A stretch of DNA of 64,000 nt from an uncultured Candidatus Poseidoniales archaeon (GCA_963934165.1 CAWVXH010000001.1:22098-86097); one strand, 5' to 3'; counted from the first letter of the stretch, positions 7,960 to 64,000 are shown. Notes: generated by a model not told the origin, from the sequence alone. Translations and numbers: made by a program.

Positions 7960-8316
7960 TTGATATATGTTCAGACCTATCTAATGGTAGAGGAGTATGT
8001 GGTGCAAGTTGCTCCGGAAGAAGAGCCGAATCGTGTGAATCCCCTAAGTGTATTTGGCGTAATTTGGTCAGAACTCAGTGGTGGAATTGGGCCTTGGGGC
8101 ACATTTAGACCGTTAGTGGCTCTCGCATTATCTCTGATTCCGTTTTTATTCCTTGGCCAACACTTCAACCGCCAACATTCGAAAGCGGCTAGTTGGTTTT
8201 TGATTCAATTGCCACTGATTGTTTCAGTAGTACTTTGGCCACTCTTCTATTTCTGGTCAATAGGTGATGCATGGTGGGTTTCGAGTAGAATTGTCGCATC
8301 CGCTCAAAATGAATGA
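7960..8316 (+). CDS. Small hypothetical membrane protein
   Basis: The ORF has two to three hydrophobic segments (LVALALSLIPFLFLG, FLIQLPLIVSVVLWPLFYFW). No recognisable motif, and the start is uncertain. Confidence 0.35.
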   Translation: MIYVQTYLMVEEYVVQVAPEEEPNRVNPLSVFGVIWSELSGGIGPWGTFRPLVALALSLIPFLFLGQHFNRQHSKAASWFLIQLPLIVSVVLWPLFYFWSIGDAWWVSSRIVASAQNE

Positions 8317-48522: not shown

Positions 48523-49796
48523 TGGGTTCAATTTCTGAGTTCATTGACGAAGTTGTTTCGGACAAACTCGAAGATGAAGTCGTAATCGAATGGTTAAAGA
48601 AAATTTTTGCAGATGGACTCAACGAAGCTCAGACTATCGAATTAACAAAATCGATGCGTGATTCTGGAGAAAAGTTGGAATGGCCAGCTGAATGGGCAAA
48701 TCTTGTCGTCGACAAACATTCAACAGGTGGAGTTGGAGATAATGTTTCGATTCCACTCGCTCCTGCCCTCGCGGCTTGTGGACTCAAAGTCCCCATGATT
48801 TCTGGGCGAGGATTGGGTCATACTGGGGGAACTCTGGATAAATTGGAGAGCATCCCTGAATTCAGAGTCGATTTGTCGGTCGCGGAACTCAGTGAACAAA
48901 TCGAAAAAATCGGTGTAGCAATGGTCGGCCAGACCAATGATTTAGTGCCCGCCGATCGACGATTATACGCCCTGCGAGATGTAACAGGAACAATAGCTTC
49001 GGTTCCACTAATCACATCTTCAATCATATCAAAAAAGGCAGCTGAAGGCTTAACTGCTCTAGTTCTCGATGTAAAATTTGGGCGTGCTGCCTTCATGGTC
49101 GAGCGTGCTGAAGCTGCAAAACTCGCTCGCTCAATGAGCGCAGTCGCTAATGCACTGGGGATTCAAACAACTTCGATATTGTCTGATATGAATTCACCTT
49201 TAGGCTGCGCTGTAGGAAATGCTCTGGAAATTGTCGAATCAGTAGAAACACTATGTGGGAGAGGTCCGCTTGATTTGGAAGAATTAGTTTGTGTCCAAGG
49301 TGGGATTTTATTGTATTTGGCTGGAATTGCAACAGATGAAAATCATGGAGCTGTGATGATTCATGACAGCCTCAACGACGGCAGTGCTTTCAATAAATTC
49401 CTAGAAATGGTTGAATATCAAGGTGGAAACGCCGATGATTTCCTCACAGATACTACATTATACACTGCCTTAGGGTTATTAGATTCAAACCTGAATACAA
49501 CAGAAATAATTGCTGAGATTTCAGGGAACATTTGTGATATCGATGCGATGATAATTGCAGATATTTGTTTAAATCTAGGTAGCGGAAGGAATTCATTAGG
49601 GGGCGAAATCGATCATCGTGTTGGGATAATTCTCGAGAAGCAAATCGGCGAATTAATAGAAATTGGAGACCATTGGGCAACGATATACCATTCCGACGAA
49701 CTTGATGAGGAAAAAATTAAATCAATTCAATCATCTCTCCGAACAACTAATGATAACGTCGAGGTCGAATCACGAATCGTGGAGATGATAAGATGA
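48522..49796 (+). CDS. deoA: Thymidine / pyrimidine-nucleoside phosphorylase
   Basis: 'VDKHSTGGVGDNVS' and 'SGRGLGHTGGTLDKLESIPEF' are hallmark motifs. About 424 aa, so the bacterial-size enzyme rather than the longer archaeal AMP phosphorylase. The ATG overlaps the upstream TGA (TGATG); a GTG at 48519 is also possible. Confidence 0.88.
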   Translation: MGSISEFIDEVVSDKLEDEVVIEWLKKIFADGLNEAQTIELTKSMRDSGEKLEWPAEWANLVVDKHSTGGVGDNVSIPLAPALAACGLKVPMISGRGLGHTGGTLDKLESIPEFRVDLSVAELSEQIEKIGVAMVGQTNDLVPADRRLYALRDVTGTIASVPLITSSIISKKAAEGLTALVLDVKFGRAAFMVERAEAAKLARSMSAVANALGIQTTSILSDMNSPLGCAVGNALEIVESVETLCGRGPLDLEELVCVQGGILLYLAGIATDENHGAVMIHDSLNDGSAFNKFLEMVEYQGGNADDFLTDTTLYTALGLLDSNLNTTEIIAEISGNICDIDAMIIADICLNLGSGRNSLGGEIDHRVGIILEKQIGELIEIGDHWATIYHSDELDEEKIKSIQSSLRTTNDNVEVESRIVEMIR

Positions 49797-50866
49797 GATT
49801 GCTCTATATTGACAGGATTCGAGCTATAGCAATTCTTGCGATGGTTCAGGTCCATACCGCGGCCATTGTACCTCCTGAAGGAATTACCGTAGGAGACCCC
49901 ATTGCATTGGTTTCAGCTGCAATCGGAGGAATGGCGGCTCCATTATTTGTAACAATTTCAGGTTGGGGAATTTATAGAAGTGCGATATCTAGGGATACCA
50001 AATCGAATGATGATTTTAGAGCTTGGTCAAAATGGATTTTACCACGAATTACAATGTTGATTTTCTGCCAATTTTTAGTCAATTTTTTACTATCAACCGA
50101 TCGAGGAGGGCGTTTTGAATCATTTACTCCAGGAGTTCTAACATTACTGGCAATCGCTACGATAATCGCGCCAATAATAATCCATTTTTCTCATCAAACT
50201 CGCATTGTGCTATTGATTGTCCTTGCTGGCTCTCAATACTTCCTCGGAGATTTGGCTGGCACTGATTGGACCTGGTTTGAGCGTGTTTCCCAAGATAGCT
50301 TTACAGAATGGATTGAGCGTCTTCTATGGAATGGAACATATCCAGCACTACCATGGTTGGCTTACATTATGCTCGGCTCAATAATTTTCGAATTGGAGGG
50401 TGAGCCAAATACTAGAGACAAAATGATGTATGGCGGACTTGTAATCACTACAGCAACTCTGATTTATTCATTTACTTCAAATCAAATGTGGGCACTTCCA
50501 GAAGGAGAAGCAGTCCTAACGTTCTTCCCTGCCTCGACTACTTTCATCTTTGTTTCAGGTACTTTTGTTCTGATGACATTCAGGATATTAGAAGGTAGAG
50601 AAATCCAAGGAGGCCCCCCAACTGGTGGTCAAAAATTGGCAATTTTTGAACCGGCTGGGCGACTCTCGTTGACAATTTATGTCGCCCATTTCGCTGTACT
50701 CGGAATAGTTGCTAACATGATGTATGGTCAAGCTAGGCTCGATGTAATTCCTGCCTTCGCAGTAACCCTAATCCATACGGCGATTTGGATTCCACTATCG
50801 ATTTTACACGAACGTTTAATTTCAGATTATTCACTCGAAAAATTATTGCAGAAACTCAACTCGTAG
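49793..50866 (+). CDS. Polytopic membrane protein, acyltransferase-3 / DUF1624 (heparan-alpha-glucosaminide N-acetyltransferase-like) candidate
   Basis: The 'RLLYIDRIRAIAILAMVQVH' N-terminus is typical of this family (R..sLD.fRG.a...M...H). About 9-10 TM helices. ATGA overlap with the deoA stop. Confidence 0.4.
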   Translation: MRLLYIDRIRAIAILAMVQVHTAAIVPPEGITVGDPIALVSAAIGGMAAPLFVTISGWGIYRSAISRDTKSNDDFRAWSKWILPRITMLIFCQFLVNFLLSTDRGGRFESFTPGVLTLLAIATIIAPIIIHFSHQTRIVLLIVLAGSQYFLGDLAGTDWTWFERVSQDSFTEWIERLLWNGTYPALPWLAYIMLGSIIFELEGEPNTRDKMMYGGLVITTATLIYSFTSNQMWALPEGEAVLTFFPASTTFIFVSGTFVLMTFRILEGREIQGGPPTGGQKLAIFEPAGRLSLTIYVAHFAVLGIVANMMYGQARLDVIPAFAVTLIHTAIWIPLSILHERLISDYSLEKLLQKLNS

Positions 50867-53800
50867 TTGTCCAACTTACCGGTCCGAACCATTTGTCGCC
50901 TTCCTCATGTGAGGCTTTGATTCGCGCATAATAAGTCGTACTAGAACTAAGGCTCGTCAGTTCTTCATCATCCCATCCGACGACAGCATTACCCAAGCTT
51001 ACCGAATTACCCCAAGTGAGGGACTGATTACCCATATCCATGGTTCCATAATACAAAGTCAGTGTCGTGTTGGTACCATTATCATAAGTTTCCCAAATGA
51101 AATTTGTCGCTGAATTTGTTATATTCAACACGGATTCATTTCTAAGAATCGCATCGTAAACAAAATAATCACCCCTGAGAGGATCATTAACCCAAACCGG
51201 AAGATGGTCTAACGAATCGAACGTCGCCTGAGTAAGTGGGAATCCCCAGGCTGCAAAATATGGTGCTAAATTATAACCACTCGAATTAGAATTGTGTAGA
51301 ACCCAAGCATTGAATTCTTCATCGTCACCATTCGGAACTTCAGCTGTAGGGAGTGTGTAATAGACTACCAGTGCATTGGTTATTACACCCCACCCCCATT
51401 CTTCTTTAATTAACAAAAATGTGTCGAGTGCAATCCAAACTGACCAACTTGCGATATTGGAACCACCATCGAAATAATTTCTCATTCGAGTATCTCGAGC
51501 AACTGGGTCGACGGCGCTATGACCTGTAACACCAACTAATTCTTCCATCAAATATACGCTTGCGAAATTACATCCTGTCTCGGTCATACCTGGCAAAGTT
51601 GATGGCATCCACTGATGATTGTGACCCAATTCATGGAACATACCCCAATCGCCAGAACCGTTCATTTGTTCGAGGTCGATGACATCGACAACCGATAAAT
51701 CATGTGCCATGAATGGATAGCCAGAATGCATCCAACCAGCAGAAATCTGAGCGTCGAAAACCGCTCGCTCGACCCTTGGCCATGGTGAAAAACCGTAAAG
51801 TGAATGCTCCATTGATAGGGCTTGGTCCCACCATTGCATCAGAGCGCTGGCATTTTCTAAATCTCTGATTTGACCGCTGGGCACCGTCATAATGAAATTA
51901 TCACTTACCAATTCGGTCCATGGTGCCGGGTTATATCTTTCAGTGGTCTCCCATTGAAAATCACTAGTTACACCAAGAATGAACATAGGTGCGCGAACCG
52001 CACCAGAAATTTCAATATCGATTTCACCGAGTGTTGAGCCTGCAGGAATACCAACATAGATTGGGCCGCCGAAAGCATTTCCAATCTCAGATATAGGATC
52101 GGATATCGCCCACCAACGAGTAATCGAAGAATGTCGTTTGATGATGTCTTTGTTCCATAAACTGTCTGAATGTGCCCCAACCAATATGTAGATTCCAGAA
52201 TCGGCGAGTTCTTGTGATACCGTGACTGTAATCACCTCACCAGGCGCTGCATAAAGCCCCGTCGTCATTCTTATCGAAGACCTCGCACCAGAATATCCGA
52301 AATTACTTGGAAGGCCAGATTGAGTGCCATTGACAGTCACAGTGCGAGTAATCCTAGTCGCATTAGCTGGAACTTCACCTGGGAATTGAGTATGACTTGG
52401 GTGGACTGGTAATTCATCAGCAGGTAAATTTCTGACCAATCCTTCTTCTAACCGTAAAATAATATCTGCTACAGGGTCTACTCCCAAATCATGACCAGTA
52501 TTACTCCAAAGTGTACTATAAGGTATCACAGTCCACCCGGTTTGATTGACTAAATTTCGGAGTGGTGTCCAGAAATCTTCGAAATCCAGCGTTACCGCCC
52601 CGGTACAATCCGAAATTGATGAATAGGCGATTTCTGCTTCAGAAGAACTCAAAATCACACCATCAATACGATCAGCCCAAACAGCTTCAATCGCATTGTG
52701 AGGCGTGTATAATTCATCTGGAACCGTCTGGAAATTAACATCATTATAGCCCCAAGAGGTGGATACGAAAAGCCCACTGACCTTTGCAATTTTATTGCCA
52801 GGATAATTGTGGGCAGCATCCGAATTTGAATAGCTCCAATACCATGAATGACCCCCCATGACAATTCCACCACCATCCAGCATAAATTCTTCTAAATTAC
52901 GATTATCAGTGTCATCGTGGCCATTCCAAAATTCGTCAAGAAGACAATCGATTGCAGAAAGGTCGGCTGGCGTTACCGAGAGATGGACTGTGTAGCCAGC
53001 CGCTTGTAATTCGTCTTCATAATGGTCGAATCCTGCCCCATAAGCCAAGCCAACATCCGTTCCACCATCGCAAACCCAATCGATCGCACGCATAGTGAAA
53101 TCATGGGTTGTAGCAACCCATCCTTCATGACCATAACCGAGTATTTTCCCTTTGCCTACGTGGCTCGCCGAAACTATAGGATTTGAATTTTCATCCAATC
53201 CTATTGGGAATGACCATTCTCCAATCGGGAGTATCAGCGAAGGCCATCCACCGAAATCAGCCATGCCTATATCACGCAATAAATCATTTTGATCCGCACG
53301 AATATCATGTACAGTAATTTCGAGAAGTAAACCGACCGCCCCGCCAGTATTATTCGCCCAAATCGTATATTCATCCCAGGCAGTTCTCGTATCAGGCGTA
53401 CCGACAATCGAACCATTATCCAATAGGCTAAGCCCGGATGGCAATTGCGGTGAAACTTCCCAACTATCGATAGTTGGACCATCATTTGTTGCATAAATTC
53501 CAACCGATTCATTGGATTTCAAAACATAAATAGAATCGGCCCAAGAAATCAAATCAGGCGCCATGCTTGAAATTTTTATTCGAATAATTGTTGAAGTATA
53601 TCCTCCAGTATTATTTGCCCAAATCTGATGAGTACTCCAATCTTGGATAGAAGTTGCAACTCCACTTAATTGTCCATTAGTTGAATCAAAGAAAAATCCG
53701 TCGGGAAGATTAGGAGAAATATCCCAACTAGATGGAGTTCCGTCCATCCAAGAAGGTGATATATTGCCAATATCATCATCGATAGTAAGATCGAAATCAT

Positions 53801-54839
53801 AAGGCGTATACAACAGATTTACGGGTGCGATATCCTTGACTTCAATCAAAATTGATACTGTCAATTCCCCACCTGAATTCGATGCTGAAATGTAATGGGT
53901 TCGAATGGCATGTAATTCAGTAGTCGTCCCTCTGATTGAGCCATCTAATTGAACTAATTCTAACCCATTTGGAAGTGGAGGCTCAATTGACCAATGCAAG
54001 ATTTCACCACCCCCTACCATTGGAATTATCTGAACCGATTCACCGAGATTCAAATGGTAAGGATGGCCTGGATAATTCAATCCATTCGGTGCTTCATGCA
54101 ATGTAATTATACGAATGTCTACACTAATTGAACCGCCTAGATTTCCAGCGGTAATCGTATGATTTGAATCTCCTAAAACATATGCAATTCCAGAAATCCC
54201 ACCGGACTCATCCAAAGACAATCCTTCTGGAAGAGCGGGGTTGACAGCCCAAGTTTCAGCGAGACCGCCGTAAACATATGGCTCATCAAGGCCGCATTCG
54301 CGACCGAGTTTACACTGAATTTGATTCGTGGAATAAATGAGTGAATCAGGAGCAGCGGGAAGAATAAGAATATCTATAGTGGCAACTGAAGATCCGGCTG
54401 CATTGACTGCAATAATCGTGTAACGCAACTCCTCCGTAGCAATTGTAGGAATTCCCGAAATTTCACCACTAGACTGATCGAGAACTAATCCCGACGGTAA
54501 TCTAGGGTTTACCAACCAATTCTTTGGCCCATCTCCTTCAAAACTCGGCGTTAACGATTGCATCTGTAAACCGACGACCAATCGAAGAGAATCTACGCCA
54601 AAATTCAAATTTTTGGGCGTCAACATAAATCGGCATGCACTGCCTGTGAAAATCTGATTAAACGCGCAATCATCTTCTGTCACCCCTCCCGGTTCACAAT
54701 CCACATGAGTGGGATTTTGTTCACAATCAATTGGAGTGAGAGTCGGTTCTTCGCCCTCAAGAAAGCCTAAACATCCAGCGCTCAGCATCATAGCGACGAG
54801 GAAAATCGGGGCTAGCCGAACTGACTTCATAGAAGTCAA
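50856..54839 (-). CDS. 1,327-aa secreted lipoprotein-like protein: putative-Ig (He_PIG-like) repeats plus peptidase M60 (enhancin-like) zinc metalloprotease domain plus C-terminal Fn3-like module
   Basis: Lipobox-like 'VAMMLSAGCLGF'. There are five or more 'LP.GL.LD..SG.ISG.P' repeats. The zincin motif 'FHELGHNHQW', followed by 'LMEE', is encoded at 51621-51635. The accessory region 'IRMTTGLYAAPGEVITVTV' is typical of M60-like N-domains. Confidence 0.75.
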   Translation of the reverse strand: MTSMKSVRLAPIFLVAMMLSAGCLGFLEGEEPTLTPIDCEQNPTHVDCEPGGVTEDDCAFNQIFTGSACRFMLTPKNLNFGVDSLRLVVGLQMQSLTPSFEGDGPKNWLVNPRLPSGLVLDQSSGEISGIPTIATEELRYTIIAVNAAGSSVATIDILILPAAPDSLIYSTNQIQCKLGRECGLDEPYVYGGLAETWAVNPALPEGLSLDESGGISGIAYVLGDSNHTITAGNLGGSISVDIRIITLHEAPNGLNYPGHPYHLNLGESVQIIPMVGGGEILHWSIEPPLPNGLELVQLDGSIRGTTTELHAIRTHYISASNSGGELTVSILIEVKDIAPVNLLYTPYDFDLTIDDDIGNISPSWMDGTPSSWDISPNLPDGFFFDSTNGQLSGVATSIQDWSTHQIWANNTGGYTSTIIRIKISSMAPDLISWADSIYVLKSNESVGIYATNDGPTIDSWEVSPQLPSGLSLLDNGSIVGTPDTRTAWDEYTIWANNTGGAVGLLLEITVHDIRADQNDLLRDIGMADFGGWPSLILPIGEWSFPIGLDENSNPIVSASHVGKGKILGYGHEGWVATTHDFTMRAIDWVCDGGTDVGLAYGAGFDHYEDELQAAGYTVHLSVTPADLSAIDCLLDEFWNGHDDTDNRNLEEFMLDGGGIVMGGHSWYWSYSNSDAAHNYPGNKIAKVSGLFVSTSWGYNDVNFQTVPDELYTPHNAIEAVWADRIDGVILSSSEAEIAYSSISDCTGAVTLDFEDFWTPLRNLVNQTGWTVIPYSTLWSNTGHDLGVDPVADIILRLEEGLVRNLPADELPVHPSHTQFPGEVPANATRITRTVTVNGTQSGLPSNFGYSGARSSIRMTTGLYAAPGEVITVTVSQELADSGIYILVGAHSDSLWNKDIIKRHSSITRWWAISDPISEIGNAFGGPIYVGIPAGSTLGEIDIEISGAVRAPMFILGVTSDFQWETTERYNPAPWTELVSDNFIMTVPSGQIRDLENASALMQWWDQALSMEHSLYGFSPWPRVERAVFDAQISAGWMHSGYPFMAHDLSVVDVIDLEQMNGSGDWGMFHELGHNHQWMPSTLPGMTETGCNFASVYLMEELVGVTGHSAVDPVARDTRMRNYFDGGSNIASWSVWIALDTFLLIKEEWGWGVITNALVVYYTLPTAEVPNGDDEEFNAWVLHNSNSSGYNLAPYFAAWGFPLTQATFDSLDHLPVWVNDPLRGDYFVYDAILRNESVLNITNSATNFIWETYDNGTNTTLTLYYGTMDMGNQSLTWGNSVSLGNAVVGWDDEELTSLSSSTTYYARIKASHEEGDKWFGPVSWTTTS

Positions 54840-54897
54840 AGGCGGCTATTGACCAATAACCCTAACCCAGACAGGCCCGAGAAAAATCACTTGACTA

Positions 54898-56181
54898 TCA
54901 ATCTAGATTTGGGTACGCTGGTCCTTCTTCGAAACAATATTTTACAGTCTGAAAATTTGATTTGAAATCGGCGACATCAATCTTCACCGATGCCGAATCT
55001 TCAGCAGCTATTAACGCCCGAGCAAAGAACCCAGCAACATCTTGCATCTCATCAGTACCCATTCCAACTCTTGTCAACTCTGGCACACCGAGCCGTAAGC
55101 CACTCGGTCCAGTCATAGCCTTGGTATCACCTGGAAGCATATTCATGTTTGTGATGATTCCTGCATCTTCGAGTATTACAGCAGCCCGGAATCCAGCACC
55201 AGAATCGATTCCACCATGCCTCGTCAAGATTTGATGACTAGCAGTGTAGCCACGATCCTCTGCAATTACATCGAATCCTTCAGCCGCTAAAGCTGCGCCT
55301 AAAGCCTTGGCATTGGCAATAATATCTCTAGCATAATCTGCTCCAAAAGCTTCAAACTCTGCCAAGGCGACAGCTTTTCCTGCAACATGATGAAGATGGT
55401 ACGATGAACAAGTTCCTGGAAAAATAGAATTGTTTAATTTTCTTTGAAATTTCTCATCATCAGAATTTGACAACATGAAACCGCCCTGAGAACCAGGGAA
55501 GGTTTTGTGACTTGAACCAGTCATGACATCAGCGCCTTCACGAAGTGGGTCTTGGAACTGCCCCCCGGCAATTAATCCAAGGACGTGCGCACCATCATAC
55601 ATCACTTTGGCACCGACTTCGTGAGCCACATCGGCGATCTCTTGCAAAGGAGTTGGAAAAAGGAAAACCGATTGTCCAAACAAAGCGATTTCTGGCTTTG
55701 TTTGACGAATGATCTCACACGCTGCGTCAATATCCGGCTCCATTCTTGCCTCATCCCACGGATATGTAACCACATTCAATCCACGAACCCCTACCGCACC
55801 CATTCGAGCGTGTGAAATGTGCCCACCATCGGCTGTAGATACTGCTGTAATCGTGTCGCCAGGTTTTGCTAACGCCTTCAGAGCAGCCATATTGGAGACT
55901 GTACCTGAAATTGATTGAATATTTGCAAATCGGCAATTAAACACACGTTTCGCCGATTCAATTCCAATATTCTCAATCGTATCAAAATCATCACATCCTT
56001 GATAATATCGTTTACCTGGTAATCCTTCCGCATAACGACCGTGTAAATCGGAATTTACAGCCTTTGCAACCAAAGGTGAGATGATATTTTCACTTGCAAT
56101 CATCGGAATAGAATCTCGGTAAAGTCTACCGGATTTATCAACAGCATCGAGGATTGAATCGGCTTGGGTTCTCGCGTCCAT
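54898..56181 (-). CDS. glyA: Serine hydroxymethyltransferase
   Basis: 'IASENIISP', 'RYYQGC' and the PLP-lysine context 'TGSSHKTFPGSQGG'. Start set at the ATG at 56179-56181 (MDARTQ). Confidence 0.92.
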   Translation of the reverse strand: MDARTQADSILDAVDKSGRLYRDSIPMIASENIISPLVAKAVNSDLHGRYAEGLPGKRYYQGCDDFDTIENIGIESAKRVFNCRFANIQSISGTVSNMAALKALAKPGDTITAVSTADGGHISHARMGAVGVRGLNVVTYPWDEARMEPDIDAACEIIRQTKPEIALFGQSVFLFPTPLQEIADVAHEVGAKVMYDGAHVLGLIAGGQFQDPLREGADVMTGSSHKTFPGSQGGFMLSNSDDEKFQRKLNNSIFPGTCSSYHLHHVAGKAVALAEFEAFGADYARDIIANAKALGAALAAEGFDVIAEDRGYTASHQILTRHGGIDSGAGFRAAVILEDAGIITNMNMLPGDTKAMTGPSGLRLGVPELTRVGMGTDEMQDVAGFFARALIAAEDSASVKIDVADFKSNFQTVKYCFEEGPAYPNLD

Positions 56182-56289
56182 GGCATTTGATAGAAAACAG
56201 GTCAAAGAGGTTAGCGGAACTCCTACTTCAGTCAATTTGTTGATTAATCGGTAGAAGACTTATTCTTCCCCACGCTCACTTGCTGCTCC

Positions 56290-58389
56290 ATGAGCACCCA
56301 CCGACGCTTGACTACCTCGCTGATTATTCTGATGTTATTACTGTCTTTACCCACAGTAAGTGCAGATGATGCCGATGGAGATGGAGTTGATGATGCGCAG
56401 GATGATTTCCCGAATAACCCCTGCGCCTCGAAGGATACTGATGGAGATGGAATGCCAGATTCAGTCATACCAAATTGTGGTAACGCAGGTGTAGTCGCAT
56501 TTACTTCATTTGAAGATCCTTTTACTATTGATGGGATAAAATACACCGATACAGGTAATCAATCGACAAATCATTATTTGTCGAATAATGTCAATGAACC
56601 TCATGTTGAACATACCCAAACAACTGGCAGTGAAATGGGTTTTACGTTATATTATGAGTCTAACGGTGGCGTTGGATTGACTGATGGAGATTACTTCGGG
56701 ACAATCAATTACACGGGCACTGTTGGAAATTTCACAGATGGAAACAATGGCTATCAGATGTCGGATGTCGATGGAATTACGACTCTTGCCCTAGATGATG
56801 TCACTGCCGATACGATGGTGATGGATATATTCCTACAAGAAACCGACTGGGAATCAGCAGATTATATCATCATACGATTTGTAACTTCGACTAATTCAAT
56901 AGACCTGTTCAACACTAGTGGTTCAGATATCGATACCACATTTTCAGCCTACGAAGATGTTTGGACTACTCTGGTCCTCTCAATCGGTGGCGATACGGGT
57001 CATCTAGAAGTTGAGGTGCAAACAAATTCAGGCTATGAAGCAATTTATATCGATAACATCATTTTCACTGGAAGTGCAAGTTTAACTGAAGATCTCGATG
57101 ATGATGATGATGGATGGCCTGATTTAGATGAAGATAATTGTGGCACGGATTCATTGGACGACACTGATGTCCCGGTTGATACGAATCAGGATGGAGTATG
57201 TGATGCGATTCAGCAAACTGATAATGATGGAGATGGAATCTCAGACAATGATGACCCTGATGATGATGATGACAACTGGACTGATACAGATGAGTTAGAT
57301 TGTTCCACCGATCCAATGAATTCCAGTTCGTTTCCGAATGATTTTGATGGAGATTTAATCTGTGATATTATCGACAATGATGACGATGATGATGGAGTCG
57401 AAGATCAAGACGATGCCTTTCCTCTAGATGCTTCCGAATCTAATGATAATGATGGAGATGGGCAAGGCGATAATGCAGATTTAGATGATGATAATGATGG
57501 ATGGAGCGATTCAGATGAAATTGATTGCTATACCGATTGGATGAATGGAGAAGTTTTCCCTAGTGACGATGATGGAGATGGTATTTGCGATTACCTAGAT
57601 GCTGACTTGGATAACGATGGAGTTCCAGATGTAGACGATGCATTTCCAGAAGATCCCAATGAAACAGTTGACTCAGATGGTGATGGACAAGGAGATAATT
57701 CAGATTCAGATGATGATGGTGATGGCTTTGATGACATTACAGAAGAAACCTGTATGTCAGACCCATTGAATTCAGATTCAATTCCAAGCGATTTCGATGA
57801 AGATACATCATGTGATAATGTCGATTCAGATGATGATAATGATGGTGCAATCGACTCTGAAGATGCATTCCCAAGAGATGGTTCAGAAACTAGAGACACA
57901 GACGGTGATGGACAAGGTGATAATTCGGATTTGGACGATGATGGTGATGGTTGGCCGGATTTGACTGAAAATAATTGTGGATCAGATTCGATGGATGCAC
58001 ATTCCACTCCTGCTGATGCAGATGAGGATGGGCAATGCGATTCCGACGATCTTGATGATGATGGAGATGGAGTTGCTGATGCTCTAGATGCATTCCCTGC
58101 AGATGGTTCAGAATGGCTGGACTTAGATTCGGATGGAATCGGAGATAATTCCGATACCGACGATGATGGAGATAGCGTATCTGATGAAGATGAAGCATCA
58201 TGTAACTCGGATCCTTTCAATGCCGATAGCTTACCATCGGATTGGGATAATGACGGTCTTTGTGATGCTCTAGATGCTGATATTCAACCTCCACCAATAT
58301 CTGATGAAACTCCAGGATTTGGCTTCTTACTAGCAATTTCGATGCTAGTTGTTGCAACTCGGGTCCGTTCAAGAAAGTCAAAGTATTGA
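56290..58389 (+). CDS. Secreted Ca-binding repeat protein (thrombospondin-type-3-like repeats) with N-terminal jelly-roll-like domain and PGF-CTERM archaeal sorting signal
   Basis: Signal 'LTTSLIILMLLLSLPTVSA'. Repeated units 'DAFP.D..E..D.DGDGQGDN.D.DDD.DGW.D..E..C..D' are present. The C-terminal 'ETPGFGFLLAISMLVVATRVRSRKSKY' is a PGF motif plus TM helix plus basic tail (PGF encoded at 58312-58320). AT-rich codon usage (Asp mostly GAT). Confidence 0.85.
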   Translation: MSTHRRLTTSLIILMLLLSLPTVSADDADGDGVDDAQDDFPNNPCASKDTDGDGMPDSVIPNCGNAGVVAFTSFEDPFTIDGIKYTDTGNQSTNHYLSNNVNEPHVEHTQTTGSEMGFTLYYESNGGVGLTDGDYFGTINYTGTVGNFTDGNNGYQMSDVDGITTLALDDVTADTMVMDIFLQETDWESADYIIIRFVTSTNSIDLFNTSGSDIDTTFSAYEDVWTTLVLSIGGDTGHLEVEVQTNSGYEAIYIDNIIFTGSASLTEDLDDDDDGWPDLDEDNCGTDSLDDTDVPVDTNQDGVCDAIQQTDNDGDGISDNDDPDDDDDNWTDTDELDCSTDPMNSSSFPNDFDGDLICDIIDNDDDDDGVEDQDDAFPLDASESNDNDGDGQGDNADLDDDNDGWSDSDEIDCYTDWMNGEVFPSDDDGDGICDYLDADLDNDGVPDVDDAFPEDPNETVDSDGDGQGDNSDSDDDGDGFDDITEETCMSDPLNSDSIPSDFDEDTSCDNVDSDDDNDGAIDSEDAFPRDGSETRDTDGDGQGDNSDLDDDGDGWPDLTENNCGSDSMDAHSTPADADEDGQCDSDDLDDDGDGVADALDAFPADGSEWLDLDSDGIGDNSDTDDDGDSVSDEDEASCNSDPFNADSLPSDWDNDGLCDALDADIQPPPISDETPGFGFLLAISMLVVATRVRSRKSKY

Positions 58390-58419
58390 GAAATTAGTTT
58401 CGACTAATGTGTGAAAGTG

Positions 58420-58490
58420 TCGCGCTGACAGCAGGACTCGAACCTGCGACCTGTGGATTAACAGTCCACTGCTCCGCCAACTATTCGGCC
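58420..58490 (-). pseudogene. Degenerate copy of tRNA-Asn(GUU) (pseudo-tRNA)
   Basis: Aligns along its whole length to the intact tRNA-Asn at 61204-61279. A 43-nt block is identical (58427-58469 = 61211-61253), covering the T arm, variable loop and anticodon arm. Outside it there are 6 substitutions. A 6-nt deletion removes positions 7-12 (5' strand of the D stem). Two acceptor-stem pairs are broken, and the 3' end is CGA instead of CCA. Confidence 0.8.
58427..58469. repeat. 43-nt perfect direct repeat, copy 1 (within the pseudo-tRNA-Asn)
   Basis: gacagcaggactcgaacctgcgacctgtggattaacagtccac, identical to 61211-61253. Confidence 0.95.
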
Positions 58491-58578
58491 CAGTTTGCGG
58501 TCTGAGCTCCGAGGCATCCCCCAGGAGAAAGGAGCAGGAGACAGTAGGAATCAAAGGTGCGTCTGTTGGCCTCGGCCT

Positions 58579-61203
58579 ATGCCACGGGGCAGAGGTTCAC
58601 GCGTCGCGCTACTCGTAGTGCTGATCGTGCTGATAGCGATTCCCGTCGACACCTTCGCCAACAGCAGCGGGAAGACAGGATCATCGAGCACAGGGTGCAC
58701 CTGCCACTACAACACCGCCTCGGTGAGCCCAACACTCTCGGGCCTGCCCAGCGTCGGCTACATCGGCGACACCACCTACAACCTCTCCATAGGTGGTAGC
58801 GGGGGACCCAGTGGAACCAAGGGCGGGTTCAACCTCGCTACGACTCAAGGATCGTTCTCCGACCCCGGGAGCAACGTGCAACTCTCATCGGGCGAGGTGA
58901 CACACTCTAACTCCAACTCTAGGTCGTGGATGGTCAACTGGACCTCTCCGAGTAATGGCTCGGGCAATGTGACATTCAACCTCGCAGTCAACTTCGTCAA
59001 TGGAAACGGATTCAATACGGGCGACGGCTGGGGTACTGCTTCTTGGACAGTCTCTGAGGCGGACTCGGACGGCGATGGCTGGACCGACGCCGATGAGGGG
59101 GCGTGCGGCACCAACCCGAACGACTCGGGTGATGTACCGAGCGACACCGATGGCGACGGTACCTGCAACGGTATCGATACCGACGACGACGGAGATGGCT
59201 GGTCCGACTCGGAAGAAGCGGACTGCGCAACCGACTCGAACAACTCCACATCCATGCCCGTCGACACAGACAACGACGGAATCTGCAACTACCTCGACGG
59301 AGACGACGACGGAGACGGAACGCCCGACGACGAGGACGACTTTCCCCTCGATGCAGGAGAGGACACCGACACGGATGATGATGGGGTCGGCGACAATGCT
59401 GACACGGATGACGACAACGACGGTTGGAATGACACCGCCGAGGCCGACTGCGGTACCAACTCCACCGATCCGAACTCGGTCCCACTCGATACCGACGGAG
59501 ATGGACTTTGCGACATTGTAGATGAGGACGACGACAATGATGGTACCCCCGACGACGAGGATGACTTTCCCCTAGACTCCGGTGAGAACACGGACACGGA
59601 CGGGGACGGCATCGGGAACAACGCAGATACGGATGATGACGGTGATGGCTGGGGAGACGAAACCGAGGCAGCCTGTGGCACTAATTCGACCGACTCGGGC
59701 TCCGTTCCGACAGACACCGATGGCGATGGCACCTGCGACACCCTTGACGACGACGACGACGACGACGGCTGGAACGACACCGCCGAAATCGACTGCGGCA
59801 CAGAGCCTCTCAATGGCACCTCTACGCCGATCGATACCGACGACGACGGAATATGCAATGCGCTCGATGATGACGACGACGACGACGGTACACCGGATGC
59901 GAGCGACGCCTTTCCTCTCGATTCGAGCGAGGACACAGACACCGACATGGACGGCATCGGGAACAACGCTGATGCGGACGACGACGGCGACGGCGCCAAC
60001 GACACTGCCGACGCCTTTCCTCTCGATTCGAGCGAGGACACCGATACCGACATGGACGGTATCGGGAACAATGCCGATGTGGATGACGATGAGGACTCCT
60101 GGAACGATGTCAACGAGACTGCATGCGGCACCGACCCGTTAGACGCACAGTCAATTCCCAGTGACTTAGACAACGACACCTGGTGCGACTTCCTCGACCC
60201 CGATGATGATGGGGATGGAGTAGCAGACATTGCTGACGCATACCCCGCAGATCCGACGGAGTGGAGCGACACCGACGGCGACGGCACCGGTGACAACGCC
60301 GATCTAGATGACGACGGTGACGGCTGGAGTGACAATTACGAGAATCTCTGCAGCACGGATCCCCTCGATGATGCGTCAGCACCCGTGGACACCGACAGTG
60401 ACGGCTCGTGCGACTTTATCGATGATGATGATGATGATGATGGTACACCCGACGCAAGTGACACTTTTCCACTCGACCAATGGGAGCATGTTGATTTCGA
60501 CGGTGACGGGATTGGCGACAACGCTGACCCAGACGACGATGACGACGGCTGGTCAGACGCGGACGAGTTCGCCTGTGGAACCATCAGTATGAACCCGTCC
60601 ATATTCCCGAAAGACACCGACTGGAACGGTTTGTGTGATGCGCTAGACGAAGACGACGACGGAGACGGATTCGCTGACTCTGACGATGTGTTTCCACTCG
60701 ACGCGGCTGAGCATGTTGATTTCGACGGCGACGGAGTGGGTGACAACGCCGACTCAGACGATGATGATGACGGCGTCGATGACGAAGACGATGCCTTCCC
60801 GAAGGACGCCTCTGAGCAATCTGACTATGACGGTGATGGCACCGGTGACAACTCGGACAATGATGATGACGGTGACGGCGTAATCGACAGCGCCGATGCA
60901 TACCCCTTTGATGACTCGGAGAGTTCAGACGCTGACGGCGACGGAGTGGGTGACAACGCCGACCCAGACGATGATAATGACAGCTGGTCCGACCAACAAG
61001 AGAGCCAGTGCGGAACTGCCTCAAATGACTCCTTGGACATTCCTCAGGACATCGATGGCGATGGCTTGTGCGACGAGATTGACAACGATGACACGGATGG
61101 CCCCCTCTGGCAAGATCCAGATGAGGGCGGAAGCACCCCCGGGTTCGGACTGATCTCAGCTCTAGCCGTGCTCACTCTCGCTGCTCTCGCTCGCAGGGAC
61201 TGA
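58579..61203 (+). CDS. GC-rich secreted Ca-binding repeat protein (thrombospondin-type-3-like repeats) with PGF-CTERM sorting signal
   Basis: Start set at the ATG at 58579 (MPRGRGSRVALLVVLIVLIAIPVDTFA); the track start at 58495 is TTG. The N-terminal domain of about 140 aa has no repeats. It is followed by more than 10 units 'D.FPLD..E..DTDGDG.GDNAD.DDD.DGW.D..E..CGT....S.P.DTD.DG.CD'. C-terminal 'STPGFGLISALAVLTLAALARRD' (PGF at 61138-61146). The stop codon at 61201-61203 abuts the tRNA-Asn 3' end. Confidence 0.85.
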   Translation: MPRGRGSRVALLVVLIVLIAIPVDTFANSSGKTGSSSTGCTCHYNTASVSPTLSGLPSVGYIGDTTYNLSIGGSGGPSGTKGGFNLATTQGSFSDPGSNVQLSSGEVTHSNSNSRSWMVNWTSPSNGSGNVTFNLAVNFVNGNGFNTGDGWGTASWTVSEADSDGDGWTDADEGACGTNPNDSGDVPSDTDGDGTCNGIDTDDDGDGWSDSEEADCATDSNNSTSMPVDTDNDGICNYLDGDDDGDGTPDDEDDFPLDAGEDTDTDDDGVGDNADTDDDNDGWNDTAEADCGTNSTDPNSVPLDTDGDGLCDIVDEDDDNDGTPDDEDDFPLDSGENTDTDGDGIGNNADTDDDGDGWGDETEAACGTNSTDSGSVPTDTDGDGTCDTLDDDDDDDGWNDTAEIDCGTEPLNGTSTPIDTDDDGICNALDDDDDDDGTPDASDAFPLDSSEDTDTDMDGIGNNADADDDGDGANDTADAFPLDSSEDTDTDMDGIGNNADVDDDEDSWNDVNETACGTDPLDAQSIPSDLDNDTWCDFLDPDDDGDGVADIADAYPADPTEWSDTDGDGTGDNADLDDDGDGWSDNYENLCSTDPLDDASAPVDTDSDGSCDFIDDDDDDDGTPDASDTFPLDQWEHVDFDGDGIGDNADPDDDDDGWSDADEFACGTISMNPSIFPKDTDWNGLCDALDEDDDGDGFADSDDVFPLDAAEHVDFDGDGVGDNADSDDDDDGVDDEDDAFPKDASEQSDYDGDGTGDNSDNDDDGDGVIDSADAYPFDDSESSDADGDGVGDNADPDDDNDSWSDQQESQCGTASNDSLDIPQDIDGDGLCDEIDNDDTDGPLWQDPDEGGSTPGFGLISALAVLTLAALARRD
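59905..60114 (+). repeat. Tandem 105-nt (35-codon) duplication inside the GC-rich repeat gene
   Basis: Copies start at 59905 and 60010. The first 65 nt or so are nearly identical (gacgcctttcctctcgattcgagcgaggacac...gacatggacgg.atcgggaacaa). The protein units are DAFPLDSSEDTDTDMDGIGNNADADDDGDGANDTA and DAFPLDSSEDTDTDMDGIGNNADVDDDEDSWNDVN. Confidence 0.85.
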
Positions 61204-61279
61204 TGGCGCCGACAGCAGGACTCGAACCTGCGACCTGTGGATTAACAGTCCACCGCTCCACCAACTAAGCTATGTCGGC
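61204..61279 (-). tRNA. tRNA-Asn (GUU), genomically encoded CCA
   Basis: Reverse complement: GCCGACA TA GCTT AGTTGGTG GAGC G GTGGA CTGTTAA TCCAC AGGTC GCAGG TTCGAGT CCTGC TGTCGGC G CCA. 76 nt, all stems paired (one G-U in the D stem). Confidence 0.9.
61211..61253. repeat. 43-nt perfect direct repeat, copy 2 (within the intact tRNA-Asn)
   Basis: Identical to 58427-58469. Confidence 0.95.
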
Positions 61280-61416
61280 CTAAGCCTGCCGCTGAAACAA
61301 TCATTCATGAATCAATCGGGTTAGATGAGTGAAAAATTATATCAAAATATTCTGTATTTAAGCTATATATCCTTAGGTGGGAAATAATTTGAATAAGAGA
61401 CTGTGAAGTGGAGAAA

Positions 61417-62373
61417 TTACTCCCACTCAATTGTCCCCGGGGGCTTGTTAGTAATATCATAGACAACTCGATTTACCTCGCCCTTCAGTGTATTCGTGAT
61501 TTCAGTGCTCACTTGGGTCAGGACATCATGAGGAATCGGTGAATAACGTGCACTCATACCATCTAAACTAGTCACCGCTCGAACGACGACAGTCTCGCCG
61601 TGAACCCGTGCATCACCGTGAACTCCAACTGAGCGAACTGGTAAAAGTGCAGCAAAATATTGCCAAGGTAAATCACAAATTCCAGCCGCTGCTGCTTCTT
61701 GGAAATGTCTCTCAACAATATCACATGCAATTCGACATGATTCGACCCTTGAGGGTGTTAGGTCACCTAAGACACGTACGGCAAGACCTGGCCCGGGGAA
61801 TGGTTGTCGCTCGCTTGATTTTATTTTTAATTCACGAGCGATTTGACGAACCTCATCTTTGTAAAATTCACGTAAAGGTTCGACGATAGTCAGGTCAATA
61901 TCCTCTGGCAAACCGCCGACATTATGGTGGCTCTTGATGACATCACGCTCTCCGCCACCAGATTCAATCCAATCTGGGGCTATCGTGCCTTGAACAAGGT
62001 ATTTAGCCCCACATATTGCTTGTTCTTCTTCAAAAACTCGGATGAATTGTTCACCAATTACCTTTCTTTTTGCTTCCGGATCAGTTACTCCTTCCAAATT
62101 TGAAAAGAACCTCTCCGATGCGTCGACGACCTTCAGGTCAATGCCCATTTCAGCGAACATTTCAGCGACTTCTTCCGACTCACCCCTACGCATAAATCCA
62201 GTGTCGACATAAACACAATGCAGTAAACTTCCGACCGCACGGTGAGCGAGTACAGCAGCAACTGAACTATCAATTCCGCCTGAACAAGCGATAATCGCAG
62301 TATCATCAATTTGAGATTCTAAAGTTTCGATTGCTTCACCAATTAACATACTGGTTTGCATCATCGCAATCAC
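61417..62373 (-). CDS. guaAB: GMP synthase (glutamine-hydrolysing) subunit B, ATP pyrophosphatase subunit of the split archaeal enzyme
   Basis: PP-loop 'ACSGGIDSSVAA', 'HHNVGGLP' and the C-terminal 'KPPGTIEWE'. There is no glutamine amidotransferase domain in this ORF. The GTG start overlaps the purE stop (GTGA); ATGs 9-12 nt downstream are possible. Confidence 0.9.
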   Translation of the reverse strand: MIAMMQTSMLIGEAIETLESQIDDTAIIACSGGIDSSVAAVLAHRAVGSLLHCVYVDTGFMRRGESEEVAEMFAEMGIDLKVVDASERFFSNLEGVTDPEAKRKVIGEQFIRVFEEEQAICGAKYLVQGTIAPDWIESGGGERDVIKSHHNVGGLPEDIDLTIVEPLREFYKDEVRQIARELKIKSSERQPFPGPGLAVRVLGDLTPSRVESCRIACDIVERHFQEAAAAGICDLPWQYFAALLPVRSVGVHGDARVHGETVVVRAVTSLDGMSARYSPIPHDVLTQVSTEITNTLKGEVNRVVYDITNKPPGTIEWE

Positions 62374-62843
62374 CCCTGTAATGATTCATCATCTGCGATG
62401 ACTTTCGCAGTTTTTTCCACTCGCCACGAGTCATAACGGCGAGCCAAGTCTGAATCCCCGAGTGCCAACATCTGAATTGCAAGTGCAGCGGCATTGTCGC
62501 CGCGGTCTACTCCAACAGTTGCAACTGGCATTCCCGGCGGCATTTGGACGATTGAGAGCAATGAATCAAGTGGCACTTTTCCACCGATGGGAACACCGAT
62601 TACCGGCAAGGTAGTCATAGAGGCGATGACTCCCGGGAGGGCGGCTGCCATACCCGCCATTCCGATGAAAATTTTACATCCGGAATCAACGGCCGCATCG
62701 ACGACTGACTCAAGATATTTGGGCGCACGGTGAGCACTAGCAACCCTAACTTTGTGAGGGATATCAAATTCAGAAAGCAAGGTAGTGCACTTATTGGCGA
62801 TAGGCAAGTCAGACTTCGACCCCAAGACAACACATACGTCCAT
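62370..62843 (-). CDS. purE: Phosphoribosylaminoimidazole carboxylase catalytic subunit / N5-CAIR mutase
   Basis: 'VVLGSKSDLPIANK', 'RVASAHRAP' and 'FIGMAGMAAALPGVIAS..LPVIGVP' are the conserved PurE blocks. Confidence 0.9.
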   Translation of the reverse strand: MDVCVVLGSKSDLPIANKCTTLLSEFDIPHKVRVASAHRAPKYLESVVDAAVDSGCKIFIGMAGMAAALPGVIASMTTLPVIGVPIGGKVPLDSLLSIVQMPPGMPVATVGVDRGDNAAALAIQMLALGDSDLARRYDSWRVEKTAKVIADDESLQG

Positions 62844-62902
62844 GGCAATTGGGACAAGAGACAGTTCAAATGCCTGCCGTAGTCATAATTTGCTAAATTC
62901 AA

Positions 62903-63811
62903 TTATTCTTCTTCAAAGTTAATGATGAAATTTGACGGCCAAGCATCGCCTGAAATTGTCAGTGGTGGCTTGGAAATAATCTCAGCGAAGAGTTTATTTA
63001 CAACAAAATTCGAAGTGAAAATATCATGAATTAATCCACTTCGATGGCGGAGAACGAAGGTGATAAATCGGTGCTCACCGTGAGAAATTCCAACCAGATC
63101 TGCCGAGTAATCATCCAATGTCTCGGACCAACTTGCAATCGGCCCATTTCTGAAGACCTTTGATTCCCTCTCCCAACCATCTGCCAAAATTCCCAAGGGA
63201 ACATCTTCTACCTTGATTGGCAATAACCATCTCCCAGAAGGAGGTTTGACCGAGTGTGCAAGATTGGATATCGTGAGTCCCCATGAATATAAGAAACAAA
63301 GATAGGAAATCCATCCAAGCCGTGGATCAATAATAATATGCAAGGTGAAAATCATCACACCTAAAAGAAATGGCAAAAATGCAAATGGATATACATCGAA
63401 TTTTTTTCGCGCGCGATTTTCAAGCCCATCACTCATCGAAAGAATTGGTACCAAGGTCAATATCCACGCTATACAAAACAACACAATAGCAAGATTTTGA
63501 TCATCAATTGGTGTTTTGTCAGGAAATGCCAAAGGGAATACAGTTGATATTAGGAAGAATAATGACCAAGAAGTCGGTAACAAAATTTTACCTCCCGCAG
63601 GTTGTAACCGCTGTCTCATCCACCCTCTGCCACCGGAAACAACATCGGTAGTAATCCAAGGTTCTGACGGCTCTATTTCACCATCTCTCAATAGTGGTGG
63701 CCGTCCCTCATTAGATGGCCACCACCGGCTCTCGCCGAGTAACCAATCTTTGTCGAGGGATGCTTCCACGCTCCGCCGAGCGTGCTCCGGGTCTTGTGTT
63801 TTCGCTCTCAC
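62903..63811 (-). CDS. Hypothetical membrane protein (about four TM helices) with a C-terminal soluble domain
   Basis: The ORF sits between gcvPB and purE on the same strand. Its GTG start overlaps the gcvPB stop (GTGA); internal ATGs are possible. No motif recognised. Confidence 0.45.
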
Positions 63812-64000
63812 TCAGTGCCATTTGGGTGACGTAAAATCAGGTTTCGTGCCGCTAAAACTTCGTCAACTCGACGAACATCAGTAGTATGTGGTGCAGTCTT
63901 AACCAAATCTGGATCTTCACCAAGAATTGTTAAAAAATCTGCGGCAAATTTGTCGAGAACTTCTTTTGATTCAGTCTCAGTTGGTTCTATCATCAGACAT
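63808..64000 (-). CDS. gcvPB: Glycine dehydrogenase (decarboxylating) subunit 2, C-terminal end only; the gene continues beyond the right edge
   Basis: '[24 protein letters not shown]...[22 protein letters not shown]' matches the conserved C-terminus of GcvPB (MIEPTE.ESK.ELD.F ... aPh...v.R.DE..AaR). Confidence 0.8.

Follow-up and report, generated by a model that had tools for sequence, protein, structure and literature searches.

The 64,000-nt stretch of DNA analysed here (the window, with positions counted from its first letter) belongs to a Marine Group IIb archaeon (Thalassarchaeaceae) with a G+C content (GC) of ~43%. The segment studied, 58420-61279, holds a gene for a predicted cell-surface protein, gene2, which lies between a decayed and an intact copy of tRNA-Asn and follows a resident surface-protein gene, gene1. 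The evidence that gene2 came from a GC-rich relative within the Thalassarchaeaceae, of the Thalassarchaeum betae type, is very good. The sequences on either side of the two tRNA copies further make a good case that the gene entered by one homologous crossover within the tRNA, from a circularised or ends-in donor fragment and without an integrase. The locus would then be an islet gained horizontally at a tRNA gene, through homologous and not site-specific recombination, and would call for no new principle. The account as a whole, comprising acquisition, single crossover, decay of the left tRNA copy and later history, appears probable to us. All related loci are assigned to Candidatus Thalassarchaeaceae, equivalent to Marine Group IIb in the order Poseidoniales.

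The segment is the only GC-rich stretch of the window, the remainder being uniformly ~0.43. Over 300-nt windows, GC averages 0.591 within the segment (minimum 0.557, 9 windows) and 0.427 outside it (standard deviation 0.031, maximum 0.543, n = 202), and the ratio of the Asp codons GAT/GAC is 149/24 in gene1 and 75/163 in gene2. Both the compositional jump and the switch from GAT to GAC had been pointed out in an earlier interpretation of this DNA (the sequence-only reading), and its two spot counts of G+C, 40/60 and 23/60, are exact on recount. A single real gene, encoding 874 aa, lies between the two tRNA-Asn copies, as that reading had also stated: the 7 other overlapping open reading frames (ORFs) of the segment, antisense or out-of-frame, have no Pfam matches. 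Neither a tyrosine nor a serine recombinase is encoded inside the insert or within ~10 kb, as judged from gene neighbours and Pfam searches of the ORFs, in agreement with the earlier claim that no integrase remains. The genes within this distance are housekeeping genes, and the neighbours in the window include TFIIB.

ARAGORN reports 3 tRNAs in the window, two of which are tRNA-Asn(GTT) on the minus strand, at 61204-61279 (76 nt) and 58422-58489 (a 68-nt call). Scored with the Rfam tRNA model, the former reaches 74.3 bits and the latter 39.0 bits, with all 13 D-arm positions of the model absent. The decayed copy lacks 6 nt from the 5' acceptor/D region, 3 of its 7 acceptor pairs are broken as read from the sequence, and its minimum-free-energy fold does not form the acceptor stem. 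The two copies share an exact block of 43 nt and constitute a direct repeat of 62 nt at 95% identity, 2784 bp apart. The sequence-only reading had described this pair correctly, including the perfect block, the 6-nt D-arm deletion and the broken acceptor pairs; the decayed copy is now placed at 58420-58489. Generic detectors still report a tRNA at this position (39 bits versus a gathering score of 29), and with the D-arm, the acceptor stem and the upstream motif all missing the copy does not qualify as a functional tRNA. The motif, CCGATTSWTTSATGAAKG, precedes tRNA-Asn by ~22-41 nt in every one of the 50-odd distinct loci, over a GC range of 38-63%, and may be an archaeal promoter element for tRNA genes. 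The decayed copy lacks it, having kept the proximal donor flank alone. The left copy may have been promoterless and redundant from the outset, which fits its decay, the presence of its 1-nt deletion in the copy of a sister species as well, and its polymorphism in the population. The decayed tRNA is polymorphic because contigs L176 and L177 carry one extra mismatch: at their positions 8091-8152 (window 58422-58483), identity to the canonical tRNA over 62 nt is 93.5% versus 95.2%.

An empty site is provided by locus L015, from a metagenome-assembled genome (MAG SI054_bin56, GC 0.44), in which gene1 is followed by a 30-nt spacer, tRNA-Asn and guaA. The SHMT and GuaA proteins of this locus are 96 and 97% identical to those of the window, and its DNA is collinear with window positions 46290-58483 and 61204-64000 at 88-91% nucleotide identity. 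The single L015 tRNA, 30 nt past the gene1 stop, aligns to both window copies, and the decayed copy sits exactly at the position of this functional tRNA. From this comparison it follows that the window has a 2784-bp insertion bounded by a direct repeat of the tRNA. The donor type is represented by L062 (Ca. Thalassarchaeum betae Cayman_51_deep, GC 0.63) and L139 (GC 0.63), which carry gene1, gene2 and tRNA-Asn at native composition. Positions 58524-60984 align to both loci at 88.1-88.7% nucleotide identity with one gap, while the flanking genes are 66-70% identical. In a neighbour-joining tree, the N-terminal domain of the window's gene2 stands beside L062 and L139, and SHMT and GuaA are placed elsewhere. 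The identity contrast, the empty site and the donor-like composition that mark horizontal gene transfer are all present, and the trees are incongruent. The capture of a surface-protein gene together with tRNA-Asn from a GC-rich relative, as the sequence-only reading had proposed, thus has both an empty site and a donor type at 88% identity.

The mode of entry can be read from the flanks of the two tRNA copies, which are crossed. The tRNA-Asn itself is identical over 76 nt in the window, L015 and L062. At the left, decayed copy, the 3' flank is resident (the L015-like spacer) and the 5' flank is of donor type (CAGTTTGCGGTCTG versus CAGTCTGCGGCCTG in the donor); at the right, intact copy, the 3' flank is the end of donor-type gene2 and the 5' flank is resident, identical to L015. 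When the 5' flank of the left copy is ranked among 39 distinct tRNA-Asn flanks, setting aside the window-type contig L091, the L062/L139 type comes first with 9, followed by 5 for the next, 3 for the resident type and a median of 2. The 88%-identity block to the donor type begins at 58524, with a relic of the donor gene1 tail. In T. betae-type sequences, the two ends that a circle junction would join are ...CAGTCTGCGGCCTGCTCC for the tRNA-Asn 5' flank and ...GGAGCAAGGAGCAGG for the gene1 3' end. The acquired ~2.78 kb is a contiguous syntenic segment of the donor, comprising the last 24 nt of gene1, the spacer, gene2, tRNA-Asn and ~16-24 nt of its 5' flank. Because the relic gene1 tail and the spacer stand between the flank remnant and gene2, the insert is a circular permutation of that segment. 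Duplicated homology, reciprocal flanks and a permuted insert, the hallmarks of Campbell-type integration, are therefore all found at this locus (Table 1).

Table 1. Features of the tRNA-Asn locus, in window coordinates (GC3, G+C content at third codon positions)
Feature	Position	Strand	Remarks
gene1, resident AT-rich surface protein	56290-58389	+	699 aa; GC 0.42, GC3 0.29, host-like
Resident spacer, gene1 stop to tRNA 3' end	58390-58419		30 nt; aligns with the L015 spacer
Decayed tRNA-Asn(GTT)	58420-58489	-	Bounds by alignment to the intact copy; putative left crossover product
Exact 43-nt block common to both tRNA copies	58427-58469 = 61211-61253	-	Anticodon arm, variable region, T-arm and part of acceptor
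Donor tRNA 5' flank remnant and permuted-fragment junction	58490-58523		CAGTTTGCGGTCTG...
Donor gene1 tail, non-coding relic	58524-58547	+	Last 7 codons and TAG stop, GGAGAAAGGAGCAGGAGACAGTAG; aligns to the gene1 3' end in L062/L139
Donor-type intergenic leader of gene2	58548-58578	+	Near-identical to the L062/L139 gene1-gene2 spacer
gene2, acquired GC-rich surface protein	58579-61203	+	874 aa; GC 0.59, GC3 0.68
Intact, functional tRNA-Asn(GTT)	61204-61279	-	Encoded CCA; Rfam 74.3 bits; putative right crossover product
Conserved promoter-like motif of the intact copy	61302-61319	-	CCGATTGATTCATGAATG, ~-40 to -23

The locus keeps the molecular scars of one transfer (empty site, donor locus, crossed flanks, neighbour-gene relic and dead tRNA), so that the mechanism can be inferred rather than guessed. 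The ancestral AT-rich Thalassarchaeaceae chromosome had the order SHMT, gene1, tRNA-Asn, guaA. A donor fragment, either circular or with both ends within the tRNA (ends-in), would have entered without an integrase by a single homologous crossover in tRNA-Asn, whose 76 nt are the same in donor and recipient, and the tRNA would thereby have been duplicated. The right copy, keeping the resident promoter-like motif, would have stayed functional; the left copy, having received a truncated donor flank devoid of the motif, would have been redundant and would have decayed. Purifying selection has since maintained gene2 as an additional predicted surface protein, and its composition is drifting towards that of the host.

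Several points weigh against this reconstruction. L015 may have lost an insert by recombination between the tRNA repeats, and the flanks are mosaic. The exact donor is unsampled, the best match being 88-89% identical at the nucleotide level, and the last ~110 aa of gene2 (60984-61203) are ~70% identical to L062/L139 versus ~89% for the rest. The donor-flank remnant is short (~16-24 nt, with 12 of the first 14 positions identical), and because the true donor is unsampled, the junction is not placeable to the base and lies somewhere in 58505-58530. The circular or ends-in intermediate is postulated, and the putative promoter role of CCGATTSWTTSATGAAKG derives purely from its conservation. The divergent end of gene2, in which the repeats differ in length from those of L062/L139 by ~80-110 nt, could come either from a donor not yet sampled or from recombination inside the repeat region.

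The transfer is not recent. A sister species, represented by L008 (MAG) and by L092 (a separate metagenome contig), has 93.5% identity in the flanks and ~91% in gene2 and carries the same junction between decayed tRNA and gene2; because the junction is common to both, the transfer is older than the split between the window and L008. Polarised with L062 = L139 as the outgroup, GC-to-AT and AT-to-GC changes in gene2 number 22:5 along the branch of the window and 26:3 along that of L008, versus 96:85 and 36:29 in the flanks polarised with L015 (Fisher p = 0.006 and 0.001). Over the whole of gene2 the corresponding substitution count is 175:37, and GC fell from ~0.65 to 0.59. Judging from these counts, gene2 is ameliorating towards host composition while its flanks are at equilibrium.

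In the sister species the scar was subsequently altered. There, a GC-rich proC separates gene1 from the decayed tRNA (L008 5440-6321, L092 304-1204) and is 94.7% identical at the nucleotide level to the native proC locus of L171 (MAG, GC 0.575; context eIF2-gamma, S6e, Cdc6, Dph2, proC). The ends of the proC insert coincide with microhomologies lying within the spacer (GTGAAAT) and the T-arm (GGA(C)TCGAACC), and the insert has replaced the 3' end of the decayed tRNA. As proC was inserted later at the scar, the window keeps the older state. The opposite polarity, with the sister-species order (gene1, proC, decayed tRNA, gene2) as ancestral and the string CGCGCTG as the 3' end of the tRNA, was ruled out, this string being part of the proC upstream region of L171. 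Within gene1, the N-terminal domain (56528-57095) is 64-72% identical at the nucleotide level between the window and L015, versus 86-96% for its neighbours, and 91-97% identical between the window and L008. This suggests allelic replacement of the domain by recombination.

The wider history of the site was surveyed in loci from GTDB species representatives and from metagenomes (80 each), annotated with tblastn and ARAGORN. The family as a whole conserves the backbone SHMT(-), surface gene(s)(+), tRNA-Asn(-), guaA(-), purE(-), whose equivalent in the window is 54898-62843. The surface genes occur in three configurations: gene1 only (many loci, including L015), gene2 only (lineages of GC 0.38-0.41), and gene1 plus gene2 (many loci, including L062 and L139). 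This distribution, over loci L012-L170, suggests repeated gain and loss at the site. In nearly every locus, the last surface gene has its stop codon 0-2 nt from the CCA-encoding 3' end of the tRNA, and the convergent transcription units of the surface gene and tRNA-Asn terminate head-to-head with no spacer. The contact between the gene2 stop and the tRNA 3' end, to which the sequence-only reading had drawn attention, does exist in the window (61201-61203 abuts 61204), but it is a family-wide trait and no mark of the transfer event. Decayed tRNA-Asn scars were found nowhere among the ~160 related loci outside the window and its sister clade.

A metagenome assembly that joined AT-rich and GC-rich contigs at the common tRNA, the alternative that the sequence-only reading had left standing, would draw on the identity of this tRNA in both lineages and on the occurrence of both kinds of organism in marine metagenomes. 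Such a chimera is rejected, because the junctions recur in independent assemblies, are shared by the sister species and enclose an insert with a GC-to-AT bias; the chance that it is correct is negligible. The exact 874-aa gene2 product is present in 8 contigs and the exact gene1 product in 20 (TARA, JEGO21 and several JGI metagenomes); a look-up of the exact GuaA protein gave no match. Each of the 17 window-type contigs fetched (L001-L007, L091, L173-L180, and the shared L005/L007) matches the window collinearly throughout their overlap, with at least 99.7% identity, and several span both junctions. The junction structure is found at this level of identity in at least 15 contigs that stem from different projects and were built by different assemblers. 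No empty-site variant is seen among these 17 contigs of the window's own population, gene2 following gene1 wherever the region is shown. The sister species, 6% diverged, has the junction plus its own secondary change. A chimera would moreover need two joins and a decayed tRNA found in neither parent, and the insert differs by 11-12% from any GC-rich genome, with the GC-to-AT changes expected from long residence in an AT-rich genome. Equally hard to credit is a native gene2, ancestral at the locus and made GC-rich by codon selection or biased gene conversion. The order gene1-gene2-tRNA is indeed common in the family and the protein is rich in Asp and Gly, but gene2 is AT-rich in every other AT-rich lineage (for example GC 0.44 versus 0.45 in the host, and 0.38 versus 0.39). 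Equality with the host extends to more than 60 other loci, including pairs of 0.55/0.56 and 0.65/0.63, over a range of 0.38-0.65. Only the window and L008 deviate, with a gene2 of 0.59-0.60 in a host of ~0.43 (flanking genes 0.42-0.46). In addition, gene1 has the same repeat chemistry at a GC of 0.42, high GC and a donor-like sequence extend to the non-coding leader, and identity to the GC-rich lineages is 88% in gene2 versus 67% in the flanks.

Two further explanations accept the foreign origin of gene2 and differ in how it arrived. The usual route for islands at tRNA genes is site-specific integration (Islander, PMC4383910), by which a tRNA-Asn-targeting integrase, either carried by an element that was later lost or supplied in trans, would have inserted a circle with gene2 and a tRNA-like attachment site. 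The direct tRNA repeats and their perfect 43-nt block, from anticodon arm to acceptor, do resemble the attachment core of a classic tRNA-gene (tDNA) island. We nevertheless consider this route quite unlikely, given the lack of an integrase in the insert and its surroundings, a displaced copy that is full length and has the donor's own 5' flank rather than being a 3' fragment, and an insert made up wholly of ordinary, syntenic donor chromosome, free of any element backbone. Nor does the tRNA block point to a viral carrier: the 43-nt block occurs in 0 viral contigs of an IMG/VR scan, and the sole matches of a 27-nt core were two phage tRNA arrays whose anticodon arms are unrelated. Still less probable is a double crossover by which a donor allele overwrote a resident gene2, the decayed tRNA having arisen separately. 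Same-site overwriting by homologous recombination has been proposed for the proteorhodopsin of Poseidoniales (PMC6461757), and the flanks are recombination mosaics, with the apparent allelic replacement of the gene1 N-terminal domain among them. Overwriting leaves unexplained, however, both the full-length tRNA copy exactly at the empty-site position and the donor tRNA 5' flank and gene1 tail between this copy and gene2. The closest scar-free relative has no gene2, and an AT-rich gene2 between gene1 and tRNA in this AT-rich clade was seen in 0 of the ~160 loci.

Both surface proteins are of a secreted type, with long Asp-rich thrombospondin type-3 (TSP3)-like repeats and a C-terminal hydrophobic tail of PGF type. 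The resident gene1 product consists of a lineage-specific N-terminal domain, TSP3-like Asp-rich repeats and a PGF/Heimdall-CTERM-like tail, the last scoring 23.8 bits with Heimdall-CTERM, slightly under the cutoff of 24; its orthologues occupy the equivalent position after SHMT in ~70 Thalassarchaeaceae loci. The gene2 product has a signal peptide, a choice-of-anchor V domain (NF041895, residues 18-155, 87.6 bits versus a cutoff of 42), more than 20 TSP3-like repeats and a PGF-CTERM-like tail. In this tail the motif TPGFGLISALAVLTLAALARRD is visible, and the scores are 14.9 bits for the PGF-CTERM signal of archaeosortase A substrates (TIGR04126, cutoff 24.5) and 19.6 for Heimdall-CTERM (cutoff 24). 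A search with the full-length gene2 protein was swamped by thrombospondin-repeat proteins, leaving even the self match unlisted, and the 176-aa N-terminal domain alone was informative. In Marine Group II (MGII) genomes, which range in GC from 34.5 to 62.7%, thrombospondin-type genes are common and have been interpreted as adhesins (PMC6461757). The ratio of nonsynonymous to synonymous substitution rates (dN/dS) of gene2 lies between 0.09 and 0.16 overall. Because it is 0.15 relative to the donors and 0.09 relative to the sister species, gene2 is judged to be maintained by purifying selection.

Campbell-type integration (insertion-duplication, or ends-in) by a single crossover is standard behaviour of non-replicating plasmids. 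The locus resembles it in the duplication of the homology on both sides, the crossed flanks and the lack of a dedicated recombinase, and differs in being a natural event between genus-level lineages of uncultured archaea, with a homology of 76 nt and a circle that would derive from chromosomal DNA. With Islander-type tDNA islands, which depend on tyrosine integrases (PMC4383910), it shares DNA of deviant composition next to a tRNA gene, direct repeats of the tRNA and one functional tRNA regenerated at one end. Unlike those islands, it has no integrase and a cargo of a single gene, its second repeat is a full-length tRNA with donor flank instead of a displaced 3' fragment, and its insert is permuted syntenic donor chromosome and not the backbone of a mobile element. 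Of the features that define a tDNA island, repeats around DNA of foreign composition are thus present, and an integrase and a partial displaced repeat are absent. The replacement of proteorhodopsin in Poseidoniales (Rinke et al., 2019, PMC6461757) is similar in being a transfer within the order, in a conserved neighbourhood, by presumed homologous recombination, of an ecologically relevant envelope protein; there, however, the gene was overwritten and no scars are described, whereas here a gene was added and the scars are preserved. As for the cargo, gene2 is like the choice-of-anchor V/TSP3 surface proteins (NF041895, NF047638) in its N-terminal domain, its repeats and its sorting-signal-like tail. 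It differs in scoring far under the cutoff of the MtsC-like equivalog NF047638 (87 versus 350) and under the CTERM cutoffs, and its role in MGII is predicted.

Few planktonic archaea are as abundant as those of Marine Group II. To our knowledge, none has been cultured, and gene exchange among them is known only from phylogenetic incongruence. The locus described here offers a clean and mechanistically readable case of gene flow between lineages of uncultured archaea. It suggests that a 76-nt tRNA, identical across lineages whose housekeeping genes are only ~67% identical, could serve as a homologous landing pad without an integrase. It also amounts to a natural experiment in amelioration, in which a gene of 65% GC has been relaxing towards the 43% of its host genome on two sister branches. 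The cargo is a predicted adhesin-like cell-surface protein, which may act in particle attachment and possibly in virus recognition. More speculatively, and in our estimation unlikely, the unit of surface gene plus tRNA-Asn might be an integrase-free site of cassette exchange, from which units would loop out as small circles and re-enter other lineages by single crossover in the invariant tRNA. This proposal fits the three configurations, the constant contact of stop codon and tRNA, the replacement of the N-terminal domain of gene1 by another allele and the insertion of proC at the same scar. If true, such exchange would cross genus-level and 20-point GC gaps and would shuffle surface proteins, for example under pressure from viruses or grazers.

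Some minor observations concern gene1, public contigs and the upstream flank. Two matches to C/D-box small RNAs inside gene1, one sR2-like (57676-57736, plus strand, Rfam 23.7 bits, E = 0.06) and one sR14-like (58156-58213, plus strand, 16.6 bits, E = 0.7), score under their gathering scores and are probably due to chance. Loci L009 and L010, in which gene1 and gene2 occur without a tRNA, were set aside as comparisons, both being truncated inside the repeats. The contig end of L010 (10560-10619) is Nextera adapter, and in L009 unrelated AT-rich DNA (10830-11283) follows the truncated gene2; both ends appear to be artefacts of assembly in the repeat region of these public contigs. Finally, the gene for an M60-like peptidase at 53834-54734 is mosaic, with L008 and L015 96-99% identical to each other and the window 84-92% identical to both, a pattern that indicates recombination among closely related species.

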